Shown: positions 23,637 through 50,060 of the stretch, one piece after another | Layout of the letters: the number at the start of each line of letters is the position of its first letter | How positions within the stretch are numbered: position 1 is the first letter of the stretch | From: an uncultured Oscillospiraceae bacterium | Lineage (GTDB): Bacteria > Bacillota > Clostridia > Oscillospirales > Oscillospiraceae | Direction of reading: 5' to 3' | DNA length: 52,432 nucleotides | Assembly (NCBI GenBank): GCA_944386845.1 | Contig: CALXCP010000008.1 | Coordinates: 1-52,432, forward strand | Notes under the pieces: model-generated | Told to the model about the DNA's origin: nothing | Databases searched by the model: none | The model's input: the letters and a program-made list of their open reading frames with translations, nothing else | Program-made: the position numbers and the translations under genes

Positions 23637-24200
23637 ATGAAGCGCAGGATCCTGGCCCTGACTCTGGCGGCGGCTCTGGCCCTGCTGTGCGCCGCCTGCA
23701 CCCCCGCCGGAGAGACACCGGAGGACACCGCCCCGGCGGTGACGCTCCCCTCCGGCGCGTGCACCGGCTTCGGCGGGCTGGAGTGGGGAGACTCCTATGA
23801 GACCCTGTTCCCCGGGGACGAGATCCCGGAGGCCGCCCGGCGGGACTATCAGCTGGACGGCTGGCCCTGCACGGCGGTGTACGCCTTCGACGGGGACGGC
23901 CTGCTGTGGTCGGGGCAGTACGAGTTCCGGCCTGACCGGGCCGACATCCCGGCGGTGCTCCGGGCGGCGCTGGCGGCCATGACCGAGGCCTATGGCGAGC
24001 CCCAGCCCGCCTATACCACCACGGATGACTGGGAGACGGTCCCGGCCCCTACGGTGGAGGATGTGGAGGCGGGAACAGCGGACTTCTGTCTCTACATCTG
24101 GGGCGGCCTGGACGACGGCGGGGTCAGCCATGTCAACGCCAGCCTCCAGCTCCAGGACGGGGTGGTCTACCTGGCCATGTACCAGTCCCCGGCAAAATAA
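23637..24200 (+). CDS. putative lipoprotein, paralog family A (187 aa)
   Basis: Near-identical signal peptide MKRRILALTLAAALALLCAAC. FGGLEWG, VYAFDGDGLLWSGQYEF. RBS GAAGGGAGGAG. Confidence 0.65.
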   Translation: MKRRILALTLAAALALLCAACTPAGETPEDTAPAVTLPSGACTGFGGLEWGDSYETLFPGDEIPEAARRDYQLDGWPCTAVYAFDGDGLLWSGQYEFRPDRADIPAVLRAALAAMTEAYGEPQPAYTTTDDWETVPAPTVEDVEAGTADFCLYIWGGLDDGGVSHVNASLQLQDGVVYLAMYQSPAK

Positions 24201-39195: not shown

Positions 39196-42100
39196 TTACT
39201 GCCAGCGCTCCCCGTCCTCGGTGAGGACGGCCCGGTGCTGCCACGCGGCCTCCATGATCTGGGGGAAGGCCCAGTGGCCGTCGCTGAGGTCCCGGAACAG
39301 CGCCTCCGTCTCCCCGTGGCTCTGGAGATAGCCGGTGTCGGGGGCGCGGTGGAGCATCCCGTTGACCACCACCACGGCCTCCGCCCGGGTGATGGGGGCG
39401 TCGGGGCGGAAGGTGCCGTCGGCGTAGCCGGTGACCCAGCCCTCCCGGACGGCGTAGTTGATGTAGGGATAGGCCCAGTGGCCGGCGGACACGTCGGCAA
39501 AGGCGTTCACCGTGTCCACCGGGGCATAGGCGGCAAACTGGGCGCACATGGTGACGAACTCCGCCCGGGTGATGGTGTCCTCCGGGGCGAACAGGCCGTT
39601 CCCCCGGCCGGCAGTGATGCCGTGCCGGTACAGGTAGTTGACAATGTCGTAGTACCAGTCGCCGGGGACCACGTCGTCAAAGGGGGCGGGCAGGCCGCCG
39701 GGCACCGGGTCGTCCCCGGCCAGCAGCCGGGCGAAGATGGAGGCCGCCTCTGCCCGGGTGATGTTTCCGTCGGGGCGGAAGGTGCCGTCCTCATAGCCCG
39801 CCACGTAGGGGCTGTGGGTGACGGCCTGGGAGCCGGCGCTCCCGCCCCCGCCGCCGCCGGAGGCGTAGACCACGGCGGACGCCGGGGTGACGTCGGGCAG
39901 CTCATAGTGGCCGGCGTCATAGCCGCCGGCGGCGGTGAAGGGTTCGGCCGTCAGGTCGATGGAGAACCGATAGGACGCGTCGCTGTTGGGGGCCTGGAAC
40001 ACGGCGGTATAGGTATTGGGGTCGGAGCCCTGGGTCAGGGACAGAGGCTCCAGGGCGGCCGCGCTGCCGCCGGAGACGGTGCGTGTGACGGTGAGCAGCT
40101 CCTCGCCGTCCAGGTCCACCCCCGCCGGCAGACCGGCGGCGGTCACCGTCAGGGTGATGGAGGTGCTCCCAGTGTGGGAGGCGGGGGAGGCGGCCACCGT
40201 CAGGGAGGGCCGGGCCCTGGAGACGGTCACCGTGACCGAGGACACCATGCCGGTGGAGTAGCTCCCCGTACCCGAGCCCTGGGCGGTGACGGTGTAGGTC
40301 CCGGGCTCGGCGATGGCGGCCCGGGCGTCATCCGCGGTGGCATAGCCGACCGCCGTTCCGTCGGGCCCGGTCACCGTGAGGGTGTAGTCGTTCCCCAGGA
40401 CCAGCTCGGCGTCGTTGTCGGTGAGCACCCGGATGGCGCCGGCGTCGGTGCCGCTGCCCCAGGTCCAGGCGGTGTTCTCCACCGTCAGCTGGAAGCGGAC
40501 GCCGCTGAGGGTCACGGTAAACTCGGCCGTCAGGGTGTCGCCGGTGTAGTTGCCCCGGCCGTGGACGGTGACGGAGGCGGTGCCCGCCGCGCCGTTGTCC
40601 GCGTAGGTGAGGGTGTAGTCGCCGCTGGCCAGAGCCGTGCCGTTTTTGTCCCGGACGGTGACGCCGGGCCGGGCCTCGCCCCCGGCGGTGATGAGCTGCT
40701 CGGAGATGGGGTCCACGGTGAAGCCGTTGGCCGCGCTGAGCTCCAGCGGCGCGATGGAGAAGGGCACCGCCGCCGTGCCGGTGAAGTTGTTGCTGCCTGT
40801 CTCGGCGGACACCACGGCGTAGCCCTGTCCGGCGTTTTTGTTGTTCTTCCAGGTAATGTCATAGTCGTCCGCCGTGATGTCCAGGTCTCCCAGGGTACCC
40901 CAGGCGACGGAGGTGACGCCGGGCGTCTGCGGCTCGCCGTCATAGACCAGCCCGTCGGCATCCAGGGCGATGTCCGCCCCGTCCAGGCTCCGCTTCTGGA
41001 CCAGGAACACGAAGGTGCCGGAGCCCTCTGTGCCGCCGCCCGCCTTGAGCGTGGCGGTGACCACATACAGCCCCGCCGGGGCGGGGGCGGCGCCGTTGAA
41101 CACGGCGTCGGGGTCATAGGTGCCCTTGTCCTGCACTGCGCCGCCCAGGGCGTCCTGATAGGTGTAGGTGAGGTCGTACAGCGCCGGGTCCAGGGGCAGG
41201 CCGGAACCGCTGGGGTCGGCCACCGAGATGGTCCCGTTGATGTCATCGCCGTAGACGGCCACCACCGGGGAGGCCGAGCCGTCGGCGGTCAGGGTCAGGC
41301 CGCCGGGGTCGGAGGCGGGCAGCAGGGTGTAGGTCAGGGTGACCGTGCCGGTGTAGCTGCCCGTGCCCGTCACCGCGACGGTGTGGCTGCGTACCTGGGT
41401 GAAGGTGAGGGTGTTGTCACTGCTTTCGGTACCGTCGCAGGAGAGGATATAGTCCTCCCCCAGGGTCAGGGCCTCGCCGCCGTAGGTCACGGTGACGGTG
41501 GCGGTGTTGGTTTCCGGGTCGCCGTAGGTGCCGTAGTAGCGGTCCAGGCTGGCGGTGAGGTAGCTGGCGTCCAGGGCGGTGACAGAGAAGCCCACGGTCC
41601 TGGTCCCGGTGTAGTTGCCGCCGCCCGTCAGGGTGAGGGTGTAGTCCCCCGCCGTCAGGGGAAGGTCGCTGCTGTCCAGGGAAGCCCCGCCGCCCACGGC
41701 GGCATAGGACGCGGTGTAGTCGGCGCCCGGCGTCAGGGCCATCCCCTTGTAGGTCAGCCGCACCGCCGCCGCCGGGTCGATGCCTGCCCCGGTGTAGGGG
41801 AGCTGGGCGCCTTCCGCCAGTCCGGTGAGGGCCACGTCTGCAGCCCCGAGGTCCTTGGCGGTGACCGTCACCGTCTGGATGCCGGTGGTGGAGGTATATC
41901 CCTCGGCCTGGAGCTGGAACCGGATGTCCAGCGAGCCCACATCGGTGATGGTGGGGGAGACAGCGGAGCTGTACCCGCCGCCGGTGCTGGTCTGATACCA
42001 GACGGTGGCGTTGTAGCTGCCGTCCACCGTGATTTGGCTGCCGTGGGGCTGACCGTCGTAGGGTACGGAGTAGGGAGCAGCCTGATACTCGATTTGACTG

Positions 42101-45100
42101 CCCTCGGCCACCACATTCAGGGTGTAGGTGGCCAGCTTGCTGTTGTAGTTGTCATCCCCCCCGTAATAGGCCTGGATGGTCGCGGTGCCCACCCTGTGGA
42201 GCTGCACCTGGGCGTGGGACTTGCTGACCACCGTGGCCACCGTGGTGTCCAGACTGGTGTACTCGACTTTATCCGTCAGCTCGTCGGGAAGGTCCCGCAG
42301 CGGGTCGCCCTCTGTCTCGTCGGTCCCATCGTAGGAGGTCACGGTGGGATATTCCTTTGTCAGCGTGTCATGGGCGAACCCGGTGAAGGGGTCGGCCTTG
42401 GCGATGGTGACGTCCACAGTCTGGCCGGTGATGTCGTCATAGCCGCTGTCGTCGAAGTCGGCGCTCCAGGTCACCCGGTAGTCCCCGGCGTCGGTGGCGG
42501 CGGGGAGACCGTTGACATCCTGCTGGGGCTGCATCTCGGTGTAGCTGCCGTTGGCGTTTCGTCTGCTCACCGACCAGGTGAGAGAGACGCCCACCCCCTC
42601 GGGGATGTATACCGTCACCAGCGCCTGGGGCTGGCCGGTGTAGGTGGCGTCCCGCCCCGTCACCGTCAGCCCGGAGGCCCCGCCCCCGGCGGGGTAGGTG
42701 GTGACCTGATAGGTCTTTTCCAGCGTGTTGAAATCGTCTCCCGTCACGGTCACGGTGATGGTGGCGGTCCGGCTGCCCTGGAGGGCGGTGACCCGGCCGT
42801 CCTTGTCCACGGAGACCGCATCCTCGTTGTCGGGGCGGTAAGTGAAGGTCAGCGCGCCGCGCTCCGTCTCGGTCAGCTCCTTGCCGTCGGCGCTGGCGTT
42901 GACCAGGGTCATGCCGTTGGCGCGGCTGTCCCCATAGGGGACGAAGAGGGGGTCGCTGGCAAAGGTCAGGCCCAGAGTGGCCCTGCTGACGGTGTAGGTG
43001 CCCCAGCTGTTTCCATCGGGGGCCTCGGGGGCCTCGCCCGTCCACGGGGTCTGCCCTTCGAAGGTGACGGCGTAGTTGCCCAGGTCCGCCCCCGACGCCT
43101 GGCCGGTGATGGCGTAGGAGCCCGCGCCGGAGCCTGTTTGCGCGTCGGTGGACAGGGTGATGGTCAGGTCGTCGTCGGAGACGATGTCATAGGTGCCGCT
43201 GCCCGACTTGACATCGTGGCCCAGCTGGCTGATCTCCTGCCCGTACAGCGACCCGGCGTCCCGGATCACGATGGTCACCGGCCGCCGGGTCACCGTGTAG
43301 GTGCCCGGCTTAAAGGTCACATTGTAGTTGCCGATTTCCCCGTTCTGCGTGGCGGTGATGGCGTATTTCCCATCGCCGTCCGGCCCGCCGTTTACGGTGA
43401 GTTTAGGGTCCTTGCCCTGGTCCACGGTGAGCAGGTCGCCGAACAGGTCCATGGGGTCCTGCCCCTGGACCATCCCGCTGTTGGGACCTTCATCAGTTTC
43501 ATCAGTGATATCCTCCAGACTGACCCCGGACAGGTCGGGCGTCACTCCATACACGCCGGTGTCCTTACCGATCTGGAGGGTCACCGGGCGGTGGGTGATG
43601 GCGAGGGCGGGGGCGGACACCGTGAAGGTGTAGTTGCCCGCCGTGCCGCCGGTCAGCTGGATTTGGCTCTCTGCCACCGTGACGGTCAGGTCATCCCCCA
43701 CATCGGCGCGGCTGGCCGTGCCGGCGGCGTCGGGGACCAGACTGGCGGTGAGGGTCTCGCCGTCCACCACGCCGCTGTCGGGATCGCCGGTCACGCCGGT
43801 GATCTCGACCGTGCCGGTGAGGGCCACATCGTCCGTGCCGTCGTAGACCTTTTTCTGATCGTCCAGCACGATCACCACGGGCCGCGCGGTGATTTTGCCG
43901 TCGGCGGTTTCGGTGACGGTGTTTTCGTTCCGGGCGAGGGTCTCGCCATCCTCATTTTGGAAGGCGTAGTTGCCCAGGTCCACGCCGTTTGCGGTGAGGG
44001 CGTAGGTGACGGTGATGGTCCTGTCGCCTACCCCGGTCCCGTCGTACGCGGCGGAGACGGACACGCCAATGGTCTCGCCGTTGACACCGGTCAGGGGGGC
44101 CGTGTCCATGGTGACCGCTGCGGTGTTCTTCCCGTCATAGACCTTTTCGGCGGTGAGATCAGCGGACAGGGTGAGGGGGACGGCGGTCACCGCGGCGGTG
44201 AAGCTTCCCGTGTCCGTCTGATAGCCGTCGGCGGTGATCTGATAGTACCAGGTCCCGCTGTCCGCCACGCCGGTCACGGTGGGCATGGCCTCGATATCAT
44301 AGGGGCCGCCCTCTGTTTTAGAGAACGCGATGCTATAGTCCGAACCGGGGGTGAGGGCCGCGCCCCCGTAGGATACCGTGATGGCGGCGGCGGGATGCTC
44401 GTCGCCGTCATATTCGTCAGTGTACCCGGTCACCGACACCGTCAGCTTCCCTTCCACCACGAAGATTTGGATGGGCTCGGACTTGGCGGCATCGTAGTTG
44501 GCGTCGCCGGGATAGGACACCACCAGCCAGCAGCCGCCCTCGTTGACCTGGCCGGGGGCGGTGGTGGAGCCGCCGTCGCCCGCCTGGGCGGCTTCCTGGG
44601 TGTCGTAGAAGGTGTAGACCAATTTGGTTTGGTCCGGCTGGGGCAGGCTCTTGTCCGACACCCCGGACACCGTGGCCTTGTCATAGCCGGTGATGGGGGA
44701 GCCGCCGTTGTAGGGGAAGGTGTTGCCGCCCTCTGCCGAATAGGCAGAGACATCGAGGACAGGGTCCGCCCGCTCCACCGTGACGGTGTAGGTGGTGGCG
44801 GATTTGGCCACATTGTCCGTCTTCTCCGCCGTGACGGTGACGGTGGCGGTGCCCGCCGCCAGGATGGTCACCTGGCCGCTGCTCTCGTCCACCGAGATGA
44901 CCTGGGTGCCCTCGGCCCCGTCGTTGGGGTCGTTGTCGGTGACCGCATAGCGGATGTCCGCCGTGGGGTCCAGCGTCCCTGCGCCGGTGACGGTGAAGCC
45001 CACGTCCCCGAGGGTCTTGGTGATATCGTCGTTCTCACCCAGGGTGGTCCCCTCGCTGGGGGTCAGGGTGATGTCCTGGCCGCTGGCCCCGGTGACGGTG

Positions 45101-48100
45101 AGGGCATATTCCAGCGGGCTGGGGTCGCCCTTGTAGTTCCCGCCGGCCCGGACAGTGACGGAGATGTCGTATGTCCCCGCCGCCACGATGTCATCCGGCT
45201 CCACGGGCTCCCCATCTCTTGTCACCGTGTAGACCAGCGTCCAGTCGCCCGCCGCCGCCGACTCACCGGCGATCTCCCCGGAGACGGCGGGGGCGGGGAT
45301 GCCGATGAGCTGGCCGGTGTAGGGCTTGGACAGCTGTGAAGCATCCGGCGCTTTCAGCGTCAGCGCCGCCTGTCCGATGGTGACCATGACGCGGGGGTTG
45401 GACTGGAAGGTGTAGTTGCCGTTCAGCGTGTAGCTTACCGCCAGCCAGTAGGTCCCGGCGTCCACCACCCGGGACACAGTCTCCGTGCCGGTCGAGTTGG
45501 TGTAATAGGTATACTGGGGATCGGCAGTTTCGCCGCTGAGCTCGTTCTTTTCTTCCAGGATCTGCGCGTTGGCGGCGCCGTAGTCGATTTGGATGTTGCT
45601 CTCATCAAAATCTTCCCCGGTGTAGACCGCAGAGGTGACAATGACCGTGGGGGCGGGGACAGCCTTGGGGGAGATGGTGTAGCTGCCCACGGTGTAGGCG
45701 GCCTGCTCCCCCTCTGCTTTCCCGTACCAGTAGAAGTTGTCCGCGTTTTCCACGGTGGCGATGGCCTGGTAAGTCGCGGCGTTGAGGGCCTGGGCGTTGG
45801 TGACCCGGAAGGCGGTGATATCGGTGCCGTCGATGGTCCCCACCATGGTTTGGGTGCCGTTGTCCCCCGCCTCGTAGGAGATGGTCACCTGGAAGTCGTC
45901 GATGCTGATGGACGGTGCCCGGACCCCCTGCTGGAGCCCCCCGTCATAGGTCAGCACCGCGTCCCCGGAGACCGCCATGGTGGGGGCCACCAGGGCGCGC
46001 CTGGCGATGGACCAGGAGAACTGGCGCTCCAGCGCCGTCTCGCCGTCCGCCCAGACGAAGTTGCCGCTGGCCAGCTCGGCGGTGGCGGTGTAGTCGCCGG
46101 CGTCGGTGGCCGCCGTAGTGCCGGTGAGGGCGTACTGGGTCTCGTCCTGTGGCTTGGAGACGCCGGTCTGCTCCGTGCCGTCATAGGTGAGGTCCGCCGA
46201 CACCGTGGGCAGGGGGACGGACTGCCGGGCGATGGTGACCTCGGTGGTCAGCGTTACGGTGTCGCCCTCTACCCCGGTGTTCTCGTTGGTGATGGTGACG
46301 CTGATCTCATAGGTGCCGGCCTCTGTCAGCTGGATGTCGTCGAAGGAGGACTCGGTCTCGGAGCTATCAAAGCTGCCGCTGGCGACTTGCTGGCCGCCCT
46401 TGGTGGCGGTCCAGTTCACCGTGGAGCCAAAGGGCACGCCGCTGAAGGAGACGGTGTCCATGTCTTTTCCGGAGTAGGTGAGGCTGGGGATGGGGGAGAT
46501 GGCGGCGTTCTGGATGTCCTGGGCCACGATGGTGTAGGGGTGGGTGATGGTCACTTCGCCGGTATCATTGTCGGCAGAATAGGAATAGCCGTCCGGGAGC
46601 TGGGCCGCGTCCGGGGCCGCGTAGGCGTCCGGGTCGAAGGTGTAGGTGACCCGCACCTGGCCGTCATTCAAAAGCGTGTCTCTGCTGGGGACGGTCCCGG
46701 ACCAGCCGGAGCCGTCGAAGTACTCCACCTTGGGATCCTCTGTCAGTGTGCTCCGGTCCGGTCCGCCGGAGACGGTGACCGCCTGGTCGGGGAGGTCGTC
46801 GCTGCGGTACACCAGGGTGCCGCTGAGACGCACGTCGTCGAAGGACAGGGAGATCTTGTCCACCGTGACCGCGACGGTGAGAGGGGCGTCGTTGAATTCG
46901 GTGACCTTATCGATGCCCTTGTAGTCGGCATAGGTCAGGGGGTCCGGGGTGAAGACCACCGCATAGGCGGACTGGTCCGCGGAGAGGTAGGCGTCCGGCT
47001 CCGCCCACGACAGGGTGCCGCCCGTCACCTCGGGCAGCTCCAGCTCGCCGAGGGTCTGCAGCGGGGTGCCCGAGAGGGACCCGGCGGAGGGGATGGTGAA
47101 GGTCACCTCAGCGGCCATGCCCTCGCCGTCGTGACGCCCATTTTCCTCGTTGGCGCAGGTGAAGGTGATGGTCCCGCCGCCGGTGAGGTCGGTGGTGGCG
47201 GCGGTCAGCTGATACTTGTGGCCCAGGGGCTCGTCCCCGCTGTTCTGGACGTACCGGCTGTGAAGCTCGTCCGGATGAAGGGCGCAGACGCTGTTGGCGC
47301 ACTCCTCGTAGAACGCGCCGTACTGGGTGCAGGTGGCGGGGCGGTACTTGTCCTCGATCCGCACCCAGTCGTGGTCGGGCAGCTTCGCCAGCGTCTCCAC
47401 CAGCTCCTTTTGGACGCCGTTGTAGGAATAGGTGTAGACGTTCTGCCCCTCGTGGGCGCAGGTGGCGGGATAGGACCTGTCCCCGTCCAGGGTCAGGGGG
47501 CTGGTCTCGCCCAGGTAGCAGATGTCCCCGCCCCCCGCCTCCAGCGCGGCGAGCACCTTCTCTTCTGCCAGGAAGATGGTGCCGATGAGGATCTGAGCCC
47601 CCTCGTTGTCCGGGTCGTCGATGTACTCCGAGTGGGCGTTGGCGATGCTGTCGCCGAAGGCGGCGTCGCCGATGGCATCATCTTTCGCCAGCGCGGTGCC
47701 CTGGATGGTCACCGTGGCCAGGTTCTTGTGGTTGAAGAAGGCCTTATCCCCGATGGAGGTGACGCTCTCCGGGATGGTGAGCGAGGTCAGCGGGGTGTCG
47801 GCGGCGCTGAGGCTGCGCTCAAAGGCGGACGCCCCGATGGAGAGCAGGGTGTCCGGCAGGGAGAGGGTCTGCACCGGGACGTTGTAGAAGGCGCTCGCCC
47901 CGATGGTCTCCGCCCCCTGGAGCACGATGTTGGACAGCTTGGAGCAGCCGTTGAAGGCGTCGTCCCCCACCGTTTTGATGTTGCTGGGGATGTTGACGGA
48001 GGTGAGGCCGGTGCCCGCGAAGGCGTAGGAGGGGATGGCGTTGAAGGCCGAACCGATGGGCAGGGTGACCCCGGTGAGCTTGGAGCAGCCGCGGAAGGCC

Positions 48101-48675
48101 TGCTCCCCCAGACTGCTCAGGTTGGACAGGTCCAGCTCGCCCAGGGGGAGCTGGGAGCAGCCGTAAAAGGCGCTCTCGCCGATCTCCGCCACCTGGGACA
48201 GGTCCAGGGTGCTGGTCAGTTTGTTGTCCCCCCGGAAGGCGTGGTCGCCGACCCTGGTCACCGTGGAGGGCAGGTCCACGGTGACCAGGTTGCTCATGCC
48301 GGAGAACGCGTAGTCCCCGACGGAGGTGACCCCTTCCTGGATGTAGACGGCGCTGATCATGCCGGCGTTGCCCGCCCAGGGGACTTCGCTGGCAGCGTCA
48401 TAGTTGGGCATGGGATAGCTCCCGGCGTCATCCTGATTGGTCTTATGAATGACCAGGCTGAGTGTGATGCCCGTCGACTCTGTCGCCATGTAGGTCGTGG
48501 CGGTGAGGCCGTCGCTCAGGACGTAGGTATATATCGCCTGAGGCTCGCCGATATCGCCCAGCTCATCCAGGCTGACGAACCCCCACGCCGGGGCGGGGAG
48601 CAGGGTGAACAGCAGGCAGACGGCCAGGGCGGCCGACAGGGCCCGCCGCAGGATGCGGGATGCTCGATGCTTCAT
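39196..48675 (-). CDS. giant (3159 aa) S-layer-homology-anchored surface protein: signal peptide, BspA-type leucine-rich repeats, multiple MBG/Ig-like (incl. Big_2) repeats, 3 C-terminal SLH domains
   Basis: N-terminal signal peptide. ~23-aa LRR units (AFxGCSKLTxVxLPxxVTxIGxxAF). Long Thr/Gly/Tyr-rich beta-repeat region (YTVTV...). C-terminal SLH repeats (FxDVxxGHWAYPYI..., TGYxDGTFRPDxxITRAEA). RBS AAGGAGGAAC. Confidence 0.9.
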   Translation of the reverse strand: MKHRASRILRRALSAALAVCLLFTLLPAPAWGFVSLDELGDIGEPQAIYTYVLSDGLTATTYMATESTGITLSLVIHKTNQDDAGSYPMPNYDAASEVPWAGNAGMISAVYIQEGVTSVGDYAFSGMSNLVTVDLPSTVTRVGDHAFRGDNKLTSTLDLSQVAEIGESAFYGCSQLPLGELDLSNLSSLGEQAFRGCSKLTGVTLPIGSAFNAIPSYAFAGTGLTSVNIPSNIKTVGDDAFNGCSKLSNIVLQGAETIGASAFYNVPVQTLSLPDTLLSIGASAFERSLSAADTPLTSLTIPESVTSIGDKAFFNHKNLATVTIQGTALAKDDAIGDAAFGDSIANAHSEYIDDPDNEGAQILIGTIFLAEEKVLAALEAGGGDICYLGETSPLTLDGDRSYPATCAHEGQNVYTYSYNGVQKELVETLAKLPDHDWVRIEDKYRPATCTQYGAFYEECANSVCALHPDELHSRYVQNSGDEPLGHKYQLTAATTDLTGGGTITFTCANEENGRHDGEGMAAEVTFTIPSAGSLSGTPLQTLGELELPEVTGGTLSWAEPDAYLSADQSAYAVVFTPDPLTYADYKGIDKVTEFNDAPLTVAVTVDKISLSFDDVRLSGTLVYRSDDLPDQAVTVSGGPDRSTLTEDPKVEYFDGSGWSGTVPSRDTLLNDGQVRVTYTFDPDAYAAPDAAQLPDGYSYSADNDTGEVTITHPYTIVAQDIQNAAISPIPSLTYSGKDMDTVSFSGVPFGSTVNWTATKGGQQVASGSFDSSETESSFDDIQLTEAGTYEISVTITNENTGVEGDTVTLTTEVTIARQSVPLPTVSADLTYDGTEQTGVSKPQDETQYALTGTTAATDAGDYTATAELASGNFVWADGETALERQFSWSIARRALVAPTMAVSGDAVLTYDGGLQQGVRAPSISIDDFQVTISYEAGDNGTQTMVGTIDGTDITAFRVTNAQALNAATYQAIATVENADNFYWYGKAEGEQAAYTVGSYTISPKAVPAPTVIVTSAVYTGEDFDESNIQIDYGAANAQILEEKNELSGETADPQYTYYTNSTGTETVSRVVDAGTYWLAVSYTLNGNYTFQSNPRVMVTIGQAALTLKAPDASQLSKPYTGQLIGIPAPAVSGEIAGESAAAGDWTLVYTVTRDGEPVEPDDIVAAGTYDISVTVRAGGNYKGDPSPLEYALTVTGASGQDITLTPSEGTTLGENDDITKTLGDVGFTVTGAGTLDPTADIRYAVTDNDPNDGAEGTQVISVDESSGQVTILAAGTATVTVTAEKTDNVAKSATTYTVTVERADPVLDVSAYSAEGGNTFPYNGGSPITGYDKATVSGVSDKSLPQPDQTKLVYTFYDTQEAAQAGDGGSTTAPGQVNEGGCWLVVSYPGDANYDAAKSEPIQIFVVEGKLTVSVTGYTDEYDGDEHPAAAITVSYGGAALTPGSDYSIAFSKTEGGPYDIEAMPTVTGVADSGTWYYQITADGYQTDTGSFTAAVTAVPLTLSADLTAEKVYDGKNTAAVTMDTAPLTGVNGETIGVSVSAAYDGTGVGDRTITVTYALTANGVDLGNYAFQNEDGETLARNENTVTETADGKITARPVVIVLDDQKKVYDGTDDVALTGTVEITGVTGDPDSGVVDGETLTASLVPDAAGTASRADVGDDLTVTVAESQIQLTGGTAGNYTFTVSAPALAITHRPVTLQIGKDTGVYGVTPDLSGVSLEDITDETDEGPNSGMVQGQDPMDLFGDLLTVDQGKDPKLTVNGGPDGDGKYAITATQNGEIGNYNVTFKPGTYTVTRRPVTIVIRDAGSLYGQEISQLGHDVKSGSGTYDIVSDDDLTITLSTDAQTGSGAGSYAITGQASGADLGNYAVTFEGQTPWTGEAPEAPDGNSWGTYTVSRATLGLTFASDPLFVPYGDSRANGMTLVNASADGKELTETERGALTFTYRPDNEDAVSVDKDGRVTALQGSRTATITVTVTGDDFNTLEKTYQVTTYPAGGGASGLTVTGRDATYTGQPQALVTVYIPEGVGVSLTWSVSRRNANGSYTEMQPQQDVNGLPAATDAGDYRVTWSADFDDSGYDDITGQTVDVTIAKADPFTGFAHDTLTKEYPTVTSYDGTDETEGDPLRDLPDELTDKVEYTSLDTTVATVVSKSHAQVQLHRVGTATIQAYYGGDDNYNSKLATYTLNVVAEGSQIEYQAAPYSVPYDGQPHGSQITVDGSYNATVWYQTSTGGGYSSAVSPTITDVGSLDIRFQLQAEGYTSTTGIQTVTVTAKDLGAADVALTGLAEGAQLPYTGAGIDPAAAVRLTYKGMALTPGADYTASYAAVGGGASLDSSDLPLTAGDYTLTLTGGGNYTGTRTVGFSVTALDASYLTASLDRYYGTYGDPETNTATVTVTYGGEALTLGEDYILSCDGTESSDNTLTFTQVRSHTVAVTGTGSYTGTVTLTYTLLPASDPGGLTLTADGSASPVVAVYGDDINGTISVADPSGSGLPLDPALYDLTYTYQDALGGAVQDKGTYDPDAVFNGAAPAPAGLYVVTATLKAGGGTEGSGTFVFLVQKRSLDGADIALDADGLVYDGEPQTPGVTSVAWGTLGDLDITADDYDITWKNNKNAGQGYAVVSAETGSNNFTGTAAVPFSIAPLELSAANGFTVDPISEQLITAGGEARPGVTVRDKNGTALASGDYTLTYADNGAAGTASVTVHGRGNYTGDTLTAEFTVTLSGVRFQLTVENTAWTWGSGTDAGAIRVLTDNDAELVLGNDYTLTVTGPDGTAVGYATADDARAAIAEPGTYTVTAQGSGTGSYSTGMVSSVTVTVSRARPSLTVAASPASHTGSTSITLTVTAAGLPAGVDLDGEELLTVTRTVSGGSAAALEPLSLTQGSDPNTYTAVFQAPNSDASYRFSIDLTAEPFTAAGGYDAGHYELPDVTPASAVVYASGGGGGGSAGSQAVTHSPYVAGYEDGTFRPDGNITRAEAASIFARLLAGDDPVPGGLPAPFDDVVPGDWYYDIVNYLYRHGITAGRGNGLFAPEDTITRAEFVTMCAQFAAYAPVDTVNAFADVSAGHWAYPYINYAVREGWVTGYADGTFRPDAPITRAEAVVVVNGMLHRAPDTGYLQSHGETEALFRDLSDGHWAFPQIMEAAWQHRAVLTEDGERWQ

Positions 48676-48715
48676 GTTCGGTTCCTCCTTCTGATCAGAT
48701 CGTGCGGGGCAGGGG

Positions 48716-48755
48716 GGCGGACATGGACAAAATGGATATTTTGTCCATGCCCGCC
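48716..48755. repeat. left inverted repeat / recombinase-type site (IR-L), core GGACAAAATGGATATTTTGTCC
   Basis: Internally palindromic arms CATGGACAAAAT / ATTTTGTCCATG around GGAT. Core at 48725-48746. Confidence 0.7.
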
Positions 48756-48970
48756 GGGCCCCTGCGGCGGCCGGACCGCTCCGGAGCGGTCCGGGACGGC
48801 CAAAAAAGGAAATAAATGGAAGGACATGGACGCGCAGAGCGAGGCCGCCGGCGGGATCTTCGTCAACGGTCTGCTTTTCCGCGCGTAAAACAGGAAAAGG
48901 TCTTGATAAAAAGGAAAAATTATGCTAATGTAAAAGAACAGTTATGCAATACAGCGGAATATGTGGGGGA
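48756..48970. other. putative invertible promoter segment (phase-variation switch) upstream of the giant surface-protein gene
   Basis: Bounded by two copies of the same 22-bp site in opposite orientation. Contains promoter-like hexamers on both strands. Adjacent tyrosine recombinase gene. Confidence 0.55.
48903..48931 (+). promoter_or_regulatory. promoter TTGATA-17-TGcTAATGT (extended -10) inside the invertible segment, currently facing away from the surface-protein gene
   Basis: Hexamers at 48903-48908 and 48926-48931 with TG at 48923-48924. Confidence 0.5.
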
Positions 48971-49005
48971 GCGCGCCGGACAAAATATCCATTTTGTCCG
49001 GCGCG
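48971..49005. repeat. right inverted repeat / recombinase-type site (IR-R), core GGACAAAATATCCATTTTGTCC
   Basis: Core 48978-48999 is the exact reverse complement of the IR-L core. Arms GCGCGCCGGACAAAAT / ATTTTGTCCGGCGCG. Abuts the recombinase stop codon. Confidence 0.7.
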
Positions 49006-49857
49006 TTACGACAACAGCCCCAGCCGGGCCATCTGCCGGGCGTGTTCGGCGCCGGTGGAGATCAGGTAGAGCCGGGTGGTCTCCACGCTGCTGTGGCCCA
49101 GGATGTCGGCCAGCCGGGCCATGTCCCGGCACGCCCGGTAGAACGTCCGGGCGAACAGGTGGCGCAGGTTGTGGGGGAACACCTTGCTGGGGGCCACCCC
49201 CGCCCGGGGGCACAGGGATTTCATCTCCGCCCAGATCTGCTTCCGGGACAGGCCGTTCCCCGCCGCCGTGAGGAAGATCTCCCCCGTCCCGATGCCCCGC
49301 CGCCTGGCATAGGCCAGCAGCCTGCGGCACAGCTTGCCGGGCAGCAGGATGGTGCGGATCTTCCCCTTCAGGGCCACGTCGGCCCGCCGGGCCCGGGCGG
49401 CCTCCACGGTGAGATACCGCACCTCGGACACCCGGATGCCGGTGGAGCAGATGGCCTCCAGCAGCAGGGCCAGCCGCTCCCGCCCCGCCTCCCGGGCCGC
49501 CGAGAGCAGCCGGCCGTACTCCTCCCGGGTGAGCTCCCGCTCGTCCCCCCGGAACAGCCGGCGCTGCAGCCGGAGATAGCGCACCCGGAAGGGGGCGCCG
49601 GCGTGGGAGAGAAATTTGTTCACCGCCCCCAGCATGGAGTTGACGGTGGCGGGGGCGTATCCCCGGGCGGTCAGGTGCTCCTTCCAGGCGGCGGCGGTCT
49701 CCCGGGTGAGGGGCCGCCCGGCCAGCCAGCCGTCCAGCGTCTCCAGGTCCCGGAGATACTTCCGCACCGTCCCCGGGCTGCGCTCCTCCCGCAGCAGCTC
49801 GTCCTTCAGGGCGCGCCGCGCCTGGGGGCCGGGGTCCCACAGGTCCCGTTCAGTCAT
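49006..49857 (-). CDS. tyrosine-type site-specific recombinase (XerC/XerD/integrase family)
   Basis: 283 aa. N-terminal SAM-like core-binding domain. Catalytic-domain motifs HNLRHLFAR (box I/II Arg-His-Arg region) and LGHSSVETTRLYL (catalytic Tyr). Confidence 0.85.
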   Translation of the reverse strand: MTERDLWDPGPQARRALKDELLREERSPGTVRKYLRDLETLDGWLAGRPLTRETAAAWKEHLTARGYAPATVNSMLGAVNKFLSHAGAPFRVRYLRLQRRLFRGDERELTREEYGRLLSAAREAGRERLALLLEAICSTGIRVSEVRYLTVEAARARRADVALKGKIRTILLPGKLCRRLLAYARRRGIGTGEIFLTAAGNGLSRKQIWAEMKSLCPRAGVAPSKVFPHNLRHLFARTFYRACRDMARLADILGHSSVETTRLYLISTGAEHARQMARLGLLS

Positions 49858-49980
49858 GTCCAGTCCCTCCTTCGTGTGGGGCCCGCTCCCGGGCCCGTCC
49901 CTATCATAGACCGGAAAGGCCGTCGGAAAATAGGAAAATATGGTAAAACCGACGGAAAACTTCCCCGACCGGAAAAAGCC

Positions 49981-50020
49981 CGGCGGAGGTCAACAGACCT
50001 CCGCCGGGCTTTTGGGCGCA
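49981..50020. terminator. bidirectional terminator
   Basis: GCCCGGCGGAGGTC-AACA-GACCTCCGCCGGGC flanked by AAAAA and TTTT. Confidence 0.7.
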
Positions 50021-50025
50021 AAAAC

Positions 50026-50060
50026 GGGCGGCGCAGAAACGCCGCCCGTATGCCGGACAT
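50026..50060 (-). terminator. rho-independent terminator for the ireB-like gene
   Basis: ACGGGCGGCG-CAGAAA-CGCCGCCCGT. On the minus strand it is followed by TTTTTGCGCCC. Confidence 0.7.

Follow-up and report, generated by a model that had tools for sequence, protein, structure and literature searches.

A predicted invertible-promoter switch with an adjacent Xer-like tyrosine recombinase upstream of a giant SLH-anchored surface-protein gene in an uncultured Oscillospiraceae bacterium

The 52,432-bp stretch of contig CALXCP010000008.1 from an uncultured Oscillospiraceae bacterium (assembly GCA_944386845.1; the whole stretch is called the window here, and site coordinates are given on its + strand) carries two inverted copies of a 22-nucleotide (nt) sequence that enclose a short segment with a predicted promoter, placed between the gene for a 283-amino-acid (aa) tyrosine recombinase and the gene for a 3159-aa secreted protein with SLH cell-wall anchors. 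Our analysis indicates that this locus is very probably a site-specific DNA inversion switch, that is, an invertible promoter that sets the giant surface protein ON or OFF, and that the sequenced molecule is in the OFF orientation. The orthologous switches of four other species occur in both orientations in nature while their flanks stay constant, and an ON junction is present in the species of the window itself. The coordinates of all features are collected in Table 1.

An inverted-repeat search recovered the 22-nt sequence GGACAAAATGGATATTTTGTCC and, 231 nt away, GGACAAAATATCCATTTTGTCC, which is its 100% complement, so that the exact inverted repeat reported by a first-pass annotation of this DNA stands as described and bounds a short segment in the way of an inverton. 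When up to three mismatches were allowed, the 22-mer had only these two matches in the window, and none of 100 dinucleotide-preserving shuffles of the window gave a match at the same threshold (chance expectation, none). Each copy is itself palindromic, with 9-nt arms and a 4-nt asymmetric centre (GGAT / ATCC), which agrees with the arms-and-centre architecture claimed for the two copies in the annotation. A relaxed search with a 16-mer returned one extra match in the window, at position 24193, with two mismatches and an unrelated centre, which we take to be due to chance. Having two sites only, the window locus falls short of a shufflon, which has more than two recombination sites.

The recombinase is a Xer-like protein of the 'simple' type and the presumed invertase. 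Its catalytic residues R142, H229, R232, H255 and Y264 were read off an alignment to the closest solved structures, XerA (4a8e) and XerD (1a0p), and the catalytic motifs first seen in the sequence are thus all in place. The gene is intact and conserved among strains of the window's species, and the recombinase gene abuts a site in nine of nine species examined. In the window its stop codon lies 6 nt from the 22-mer; the distance of 0 nt given in the annotation holds for the extended palindrome around the right-hand site only. A protein search returned at least 8000 homologous sequences at E ≤ 1e-20, a pool that probably also contains other Xer-like recombinases, and the best 120 homologues were 278–314 aa long (nearly all 280–284) and 64–97% identical. 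The best NCBIfam matches were XerA, XerD and XerC, all of them far under the cut-offs (115.1 bits against 220, 92.5 against 329.6 and 88.3 against 335.15, respectively), and no Bacteroidales-type invertase model appeared among the NCBIfam matches of the recombinase at E ≤ 0.001. The FimB and FimE models PRK09870 and PRK09871 scored 24.7 and 22.0 bits against cut-offs of 221 and 222, and membership of the FimB/FimE family was rejected on these scores. A XerC/XerD or XerA dimer-resolution system was likewise rejected, given the scores under the equivalog cut-offs and the presence of two inverted sites flanking a promoter where such a system would have a single dif.

Next, we examined the sequence properties of the invertible segment. 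The sigma-A/sigma-70-type promoter TTGATA-17 nt-TGc-TAATGT is the best sigma-70-like match in the segment, lies approximately 45 nt from one of its ends in a dip of 39–40% GC amid DNA of ~70% GC, and coincides in position with the promoters of homologous switches in other species, which are clearly stronger. In the sequenced molecule it points at the 3′ end of the recombinase gene. When the region 48725–48999 was inverted in silico, the promoter moved to 48793–48821 on the − strand, with a predicted start near position 48786, from which a leader of ~111 nt would run up to the giant gene; the ON junctions predicted from this inversion are recombinase flank-site-ATGCCCGCCGGG and GGGAGCGCGCC-site-ATGTCCGCC. 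No promoter-like sequence was found on reading the stretch between the left site and the ribosome-binding site (RBS) of the giant gene. The annotation had also listed a weak promoter-like match toward the giant gene, TTGCAT-19-CATAAT; it is indeed present, but its spacing is non-functional and it is not conserved, and it was set aside. The motif AAAAnAGGAAAA occurs twice within the invertible segment (48884–48898 and 48904–48918), one copy overlapping the −35 box, and a third time at 49924–49938, upstream of the recombinase gene and near a weak promoter match there; it could be a shared regulator site or merely AT-rich promoter DNA.

The giant gene is co-directional with the recombinase gene, as had been annotated, and starts ~50 nt past the left site; the N-terminus of its product reads as signal-peptide-like. 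The module as a whole suggests the following mechanism. The recombinase would bind the palindromic arms (RGACAAAAT / ATTTTGTCY) of both 22-bp sites, pair the sites and exchange strands across the asymmetric centre (GGAT, within AAT-GGAT-ATT), and since the two centres face in opposite directions, this exchange would invert the 231-bp segment. As sequenced, the promoter would fire into the 3′ end of the recombinase gene, antisense to it, and the giant gene would be OFF because it is left without a promoter of its own. In the inverted form the relocated promoter would transcribe the leader through the left site, the RBS and the giant gene, giving the ON state. On this model the recombinase is the presumed catalyst, the promoter is presumed to be active, and orientation would set the amount of protein. 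By analogy with the orientational control of fimE, the antisense transcript made in the OFF state may also dampen recombinase expression and so help OFF to dominate.

The same module is found well beyond the species of the window. Exact scans for the 22-mer in GTDB representative genomes and in a metagenome collection found it in Clostridia of 51–59% GC, among them Candidatus Merdivicinus intestinigallinarum (Oscillospiraceae), a metagenome-assembled genome (MAG) labelled 'Clostridiales bacterium', and UMGS1232. In the loci from these scans the site directly follows a recombinase gene whose product is 56–68% identical to that of the window, and the inverted partner lies 240–252 bp away wherever the locus extends far enough. 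Look-ups of five further family members found the same module in five more species. Altogether, nine of the nine species examined have the order recombinase stop codon, site, segment of ~230 bp, inverted site and target gene, with recombinases of the eight other species 56–74% identical to that of the window, and the sites co-occur with the recombinase across species of 51–68% GC. The site consensus across the nine species is RGACAAAAT-N4-ATTTTGYCY, the spacing from centre to centre is 252–253 bp in six species, 240–242 bp in two and 220 bp in one, and in four of the other species the stop codon of the recombinase gene and the outer arm share bases. The 4-nt centre varies by species (GGAT, AAGT, CTAT, AAAC, AATC, CAAT) and is always matched and inverted within a locus. 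Such matching is expected of the strand-exchange, or overlap, region of tyrosine recombinases, as in the sites of Cre, FLP and Xer.

The best sigma-70-like match (TTGnnn-17 nt-(TGn)TAnnnT) of each species sits at the homologous position, about 45–60 nt from one site, and its strand follows the orientation of the segment, so that the predicted promoter, which has a weak −10 box in the window, would face the target in one orientation only. The segments of the sister species also carry hairpin and T-run terminators, read by eye, which are orientation-dependent and which would halt read-through from the recombinase gene. Giant SLH-anchored proteins of varied domain make-up are encoded downstream in five species (those of the window, UMGS1232-like, P0070, P0058 and P0077). 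Other cargo consists of a glycosyltransferase cluster in one species and of an HD-GYP response regulator with CotH in another. All of these are surface or signalling loci, the usual targets of phase variation.

The first gene past the switch in three species encodes a 291–294-aa paralogue of the recombinase (L021, 4647–5522; L031, 2862–3737; L047, 4636–5520), with 37% identity in the one pair compared (L021). The paralogue lacks the catalytic arginine (TGIRVSE changed to TGIPVQE or similar), the HxxR box (HNLRH changed to RCLKR) and the C-terminal His/Tyr, and is a dead recombinase, predicted to be expressed in the ON state only and possibly serving as a site-binding accessory or lock; the window has no such paralogue. 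A further three species have, as the first gene past the switch, one for a multi-repeat DUF4379 (treble-clef zinc finger) protein (L019, 2307–3242; L011, 1896–2795 on the − strand; L068/L069, 5041–6222), with a giant SLH protein next in line in L019 and L069. The copy of the exact 22-mer in a Clostridia MAG of 31.8% GC (L012, 2087–2108) is probably unrelated, being a single palindrome with no recombinase homologue in 8 kb; it lies inside a longer palindrome, ATGGGGACAAAATGGATATTTTGTCCCCAT, just beyond the end of a 548-aa open reading frame.

Inversion of these switches was observed directly. Independent metagenome assemblies carry the segment in opposite orientations in four species: P0070 (7 ON, 3 OFF), P0058 (1 ON, 9 OFF), P0077 (1 ON, 4 OFF) and P0035 (9 ON, 1 OFF). 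The ON and OFF segments are 99–100% identical as reverse complements and 53–59% identical in the same orientation, and the flanks (200 nt upstream, and the downstream region) are unchanged at 98–100% identity. In all ON assemblies the promoter is directed toward the downstream operon, and its distance from the site is constant. Since a promoter facing the downstream gene defines ON, positional homology places the window in the OFF state, in concordance with what the annotation had suggested, and the expectation that a segment of this layout flips is borne out at the orthologous switches.

The UMGS1232-like species provides a finer record of recombination. Its recombinase genes are 99.3–100% identical across contigs and stand beside arrays of two, three or four sites (Table 1). 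The extra sites are separated by short modules of 19–20 nt, which are found to one side or the other of the main segment and in opposite orientations; the 20-nt module tttcacctgaaatagaaaaa, for instance, is on the recombinase side in L014 and L019 and reverse-complemented on the target side in L016 and L017. Single-nucleotide polymorphisms in the half-sites, followed by hand, recombine as predicted for inversion between the outermost sites, a second, nested inversion and deletions between direct sites, and this exchange of half-sites, which only site-specific crossover in the centre explains, places the crossover within AAT-GGAT-ATT. The behaviour of these arrays is shufflon-like without coding cargo, as no coding segments are shuffled.

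In the P0085 species, several Logan contigs stop precisely at the final base that both copies of the inverted repeat share. Contigs that end within a site at the last base common to both copies include L050, L055 and L056 (23 nt past the recombinase gene) and L067 (inside the target-proximal site). Such ends fit a branch of the assembly graph caused by mixed orientations, which is only suggestive, and branching of this kind may explain why most contigs with these recombinases are only 1–5 kb long.

For the species of the window, exact-protein look-ups with its recombinase and four allelic variants yielded 36 metagenome contigs, which share the gene order pheT, degV, ireB, recombinase and giant gene. 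Thirty of them are OFF, in the orientation of the window, three have lost the cassette, one is a mixed scaffold and two are uninformative. The mixed scaffold, L043, which comes from sample SAMEA6814676, has an OFF left junction, a gap of 10 Ns and then a piece that reads TAATGTAAAAGAACAG...GGGAGCGCGCC-site-ATGTCCGCCCCCC-RBS-ATG. This right-hand piece agrees with the window inverted in silico at 159 of 160 positions and with the OFF form at 116 of 160, and hence an ON junction exists in the window's species, though OFF dominates the consensus assemblies. In the three cassette-deleted contigs, L010 (after 2329), L046 (after 1114) and L087 (after 1852), which come from three samples and two studies, exactly the 231-bp segment and one site are missing (window 48747–48999), and one intact site with a GGAT centre is left between the recombinase flank and the leader of the giant gene. 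Deletion is not the canonical outcome of recombination between inverted sites. It could have arisen through the palindromic arms acting as 9-bp direct repeats or through a mis-aligned synapsis, and the resulting strains would be promoter-less or read-through 'locked' variants.

The sites of the window's species also vary among strains. Their flanks are mosaic, with GCC or TTT on the outside and GGCGCGC, GGTATTA or TGTATTA on the inside (window 48716–48755 and 48972–49005, compared with L001, L002, L007 and L058). In many strains the target-proximal site has lost 1 nt from its outer arm (ATTTTGTC-ATG), a deletion that might lower recombination there.

Several observations weigh against a working switch in the window's species, and the main weakness for this locus is that ON was seen as one scaffold junction only. 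All 31 of the informative full or left-junction assemblies, the window included, are OFF, and no complete ON contig was found among the 36; the single ON junction of L043 lies beside a 10-N gap and has one mismatch inside the site. The promoter, which the annotation called a good one, is present, best in its segment and at the homologous position, but that adjective was too strong, as the −10 hexamer TAATGT matches the consensus at three of six positions (it keeps A2, T6 and the TG extension); a generic promoter scan of the region called no promoter, a silence that the weak −10 hexamer accounts for. The 15- and 18-nt extensions of the palindromes exist in the present orientation only, which suggests long residence in OFF. 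Moreover, no canonical intrinsic terminator was found inside the window's segment, unlike those of the sister species; the perfect GC-rich palindrome CCGGACCGCTCCGGAGCGGTCCGG occupies the place of their terminator, yet it is not a canonical terminator on either strand. A scan for ON junctions in the Joint Genome Institute (JGI) metagenome collection gave no match and may be listed here as well, but it is uninformative because that collection contains no locus of the window's species (the bare 22-mer recovered other species only).

These points could be read together as a real switch family that is a relic, or effectively locked OFF, in the species of the window, with inversion rare or lost and the giant gene expressed by read-through or after a strain-specific rearrangement such as the precise deletion of the cassette. 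The preponderance of OFF assemblies, the weak −10 hexamer, the palindrome extensions confined to the OFF arrangement and the three independent contigs in which the giant gene stands directly behind the recombinase gene all agree with this explanation. We consider it improbable, given that both 22-bp sites are perfect, that the recombinase is intact and conserved among strains, that L043 carries the ON junction, and that a strong OFF bias is normal for some characterised switches: the orientation of the RecV-controlled switches of Clostridioides difficile (cwpV, flgB, cmrRST, pdcB) is strongly biased in populations (PMC2784873, PMC5386303, PMC9286219), and cwpV is mostly OFF in culture (PMC2784873).

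It is very unlikely, in our estimation, that inversion serves mainly to control the recombinase through antisense RNA, or the read-through and termination of its transcript, with a secondary effect on the giant gene. As sequenced, the promoter reads antisense to the recombinase gene, and the terminators in the sister segments depend on orientation; both facts would suit such a role. So would RNA folding, which predicts very stable hairpins just ahead of the giant-gene RBS in the OFF read-through RNA (141 nt, −74.1 kcal/mol, z = −5.7), where the left extended palindrome forms a strong hairpin in RNA reading through from the recombinase gene. Against this, the promoter is the most conserved internal feature of the segments and faces the downstream operon in the ON assemblies, and the genes that follow the switch are of a kind classically under phase variation; nor do the two ideas exclude each other. 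That the copies are ordinary hairpins (terminators or repetitive extragenic palindrome (REP)-like elements), operator palindromes, or Xer/dif- or att-type sites, with no inversion at all, is scarcely credible. Each copy is indeed palindromic and able to form a hairpin, the right one is placed where a terminator of the recombinase gene would be, and the recombinase is most similar to Xer proteins. The reading of the copies as terminators, REP elements or operators was nevertheless rejected, since there are only two copies in 52 kb with no T-run after either hairpin, which speaks against the common terminator hairpins that the annotation itself had named as a refutation, and since the centres covary within loci and inversions are directly observed. 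The co-occurrence of sites and recombinase across species of 51–68% GC and the XerC/XerD scores of 88–92 bits against cut-offs of 330–335 point in the same direction. No Rfam family came near its gathering score over the locus, where the only matches, one at the right-hand site and one at the terminator ahead of the recombinase gene, were to generic hairpins. In addition, dif is a single site, and the att sites of an integrated element are direct and not inverted repeats. The invertible promoter of the giant gene therefore remains the reading that we favour.

Functionally, this is a putative fimS-like invertible promoter driven by a tyrosine recombinase. The fim switch of Escherichia coli is a 314-bp element with 9-bp inverted repeats that is inverted by the recombinases FimB and FimE and controls type 1 fimbriae. 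The two systems share a short invertible element (231 bp plus sites in the window), short inverted repeats and a sigma-70 promoter, a predicted one in the window, and in both the recombinase gene lies immediately upstream of a surface-structure operon and is co-directional with it. In both, too, the OFF promoter points back to the recombinase gene and recombinase transcripts enter the switch, so that orientation could feed back on the recombinase. They differ in that there is one recombinase here, outside the FimB/FimE family, instead of two, that the sites are 22 bp long with palindromic arms instead of 9-bp inverted repeats, and that the switch, in a Gram-positive host, has one giant SLH-anchored protein as its cargo. 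The single-recombinase Xer systems (archaeal XerA/dif, XerH/difH, XerS/difSL) are the closest relatives in sequence and structure, with a small 'simple' recombinase, palindromic arms, a short asymmetric centre and a gene beside the site. In contrast to them, the recombinase described here scores far under the family cut-offs, its two inverted sites enclose a promoter, the reaction is inversion and not dimer resolution, and the chromosomal context of the module changes from species to species.

The RecV switches of C. difficile belong to the same class, Clostridia, and likewise combine a tyrosine recombinase with segments of ~150–300 bp upstream of cell-wall, signalling and cyclic di-GMP genes (PMC2784873, PMC5386303, PMC9286219); one homologous switch of the window's family also precedes an HD-GYP response regulator. 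Architecture sets them apart, as RecV acts in trans on many dispersed switches whereas each switch here abuts its own recombinase, and cwpV works through a leader terminator and not through promoter movement, whereas the segment described here carries the promoter. The invertible promoters of Bacteroidales (Tsr family, 'cluster 3b') are similar in belonging to gut commensals, in controlling surface structures and in often having the invertase adjacent (PMC11892184, PMC4747536), and differ in phylum, promoter type (Bacteroidetes −33/−7) and inverted-repeat motifs.

The closest catalogued counterpart is inverton group 139 with invertase group 35, from a 2025 PhaseFinderDC survey of the hCom2 gut community (PMC11892184). 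Group 139 comprises 33 invertons, 32 of them in Clostridia across 17 strains, nearly all with an adjacent group 35 tyrosine recombinase in a 'non-regulatable' orientation, and its members include an element of 255 bp in Intestinimonas butyriciproducens DSM 26588, at 1750639–1750893, and one of 257 bp in Clostridium sp. D5, at 3525576–3525832 (PMC11892184). The orientation of the group shifted on passage and differed between mucin-attached and planktonic cells, and the Intestinimonas example was biased by attachment to mucin carriers (PMC11892184). The total size (~255 bp against 275 bp here) and the 3′ end of an adjacent recombinase gene facing the inverton agree with the window, which likely belongs to this group, the match being one of layout and size and not of motif. 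The survey offers no dissection of site, promoter, recombinase class or cargo and does not mention SLH proteins (PMC11892184). The suggestion in the annotation that the system may be undescribed thus needs qualification: a Clostridia inverton group of similar size, with an adjacent tyrosine recombinase oriented in the same way, was catalogued in 2025 (PMC11892184), and a literature search on SLH proteins with invertons or phase variation in Clostridia found no specific description of the sites, the recombinase class or the SLH link. The principle is known, and the window locus is probably part of an already catalogued, uncharacterised family.

Beyond the window, we give roughly even chances to a broader interpretation, namely that a self-contained cassette of Xer-like invertase, site, promoter and site, widespread and mechanistically uncharacterised, stands repeatedly before giant SLH adhesin-like proteins or other surface and signalling operons in Oscillospiraceae-like gut Clostridia, with related loci adding a dead paralogue or a DUF4379 protein, multi-site arrays and locking deletions. 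If it is true, the display of the largest surface proteins of many uncultured gut anaerobes would be phase-variable through one common device. Surface phase variation is well documented in Bacteroidales and C. difficile, and very little work on it exists for the Oscillospiraceae-like Clostridia, which are abundant in animal and human guts and mostly uncultured. Among the cargo are giant SLH-anchored proteins of the LRR, pilin-like and VWA kinds, probably adhesins or targets of phages or immunity. The value of the family lies in its breadth, in the giant SLH cargo, in the extras of the relatives and in a compact, searchable signature (recombinase stop codon, RGACAAAAT-N4-ATTTTGYCY, ~230 bp with a promoter, inverted site) by which switches and their ON/OFF state can be scored in metagenomes. 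The same signature may account for contigs of these species often breaking exactly at the switch. Gram-positive anaerobes could also be equipped with orthogonal genetic switches built from such small, self-contained pairs of invertase and site, whose centres are specific to each species.

Table 1. Positions of the switch and its surroundings in the window, and of the site arrays in contigs of the UMGS1232-like species.
Feature	Position	Strand	Description
Target gene	39196..48675	−	3159-aa secreted protein; BspA-type LRR, YDG, MBG and three C-terminal SLH cell-wall anchors
Giant-gene RBS (GGAGG)	48684..48688	−	8 nt ahead of ATG
Extended palindrome, left site	48716..48755		18-nt arms; inversion would break the extension
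Giant-gene-proximal recombination site	48725..48746	+	GGACAAAAT-GGAT-ATTTTGTCC; ATCC centre in gene direction; exact inverted repeat of 48978–48999
Invertible segment	48747..48977		231 bp; OFF orientation here
GC-rich palindrome	48761..48784		CCGGACCGCTCCGGAGCGGTCCGG, perfect, inside the segment; A-run after it on + strand, T-run before it on − strand
Predicted promoter	48903..48931	+	sigma-A/sigma-70 type
Extended palindrome, right site	48972..49005		15-nt arms; strain-specific, other strains having TTT / GGTATTA flanks and no extension
Recombinase-proximal recombination site	48978..48999	+	GGACAAAAT-ATCC-ATTTTGTCC
Recombinase gene	49006..49857	−	Pfam Phage_integrase (4.7e-21) and SAM_1 (N-terminal SAM-like)
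Terminator after upstream ireB-like gene	49974..50013	−	hairpin and T-run; 18-nt arms, 100% complementary
Site arrays, UMGS1232-like species	L014 5467–5823; L019 1925–2281; L017 2916–3272; L016 5663–5978; L018 2736–3009		

With regard to the neighbourhood of the switch, a second, tandem hairpin and T-run terminator follows the ireB-like gene at about 50020–50050 on the − strand. The terminators behind this gene imply that the recombinase gene is a transcription unit of its own, starting within 49858–49973, and the only promoter match upstream of it is the weak TTTTCC-16-TATGAT at about 49903–49930.

Finally, the ~60 residues that follow directly on the signal peptide of the giant protein come in two clearly different allelic versions among strains (…GDIGEPQAIYTYVLSDG… and …GDIGSPWTEATYDLGGG…), as compared in L010, L042, L057 and L064. 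The allelic region corresponds to about 48480–48560 of the window, and the variation would fit diversifying selection or recombination in a domain exposed at the surface.

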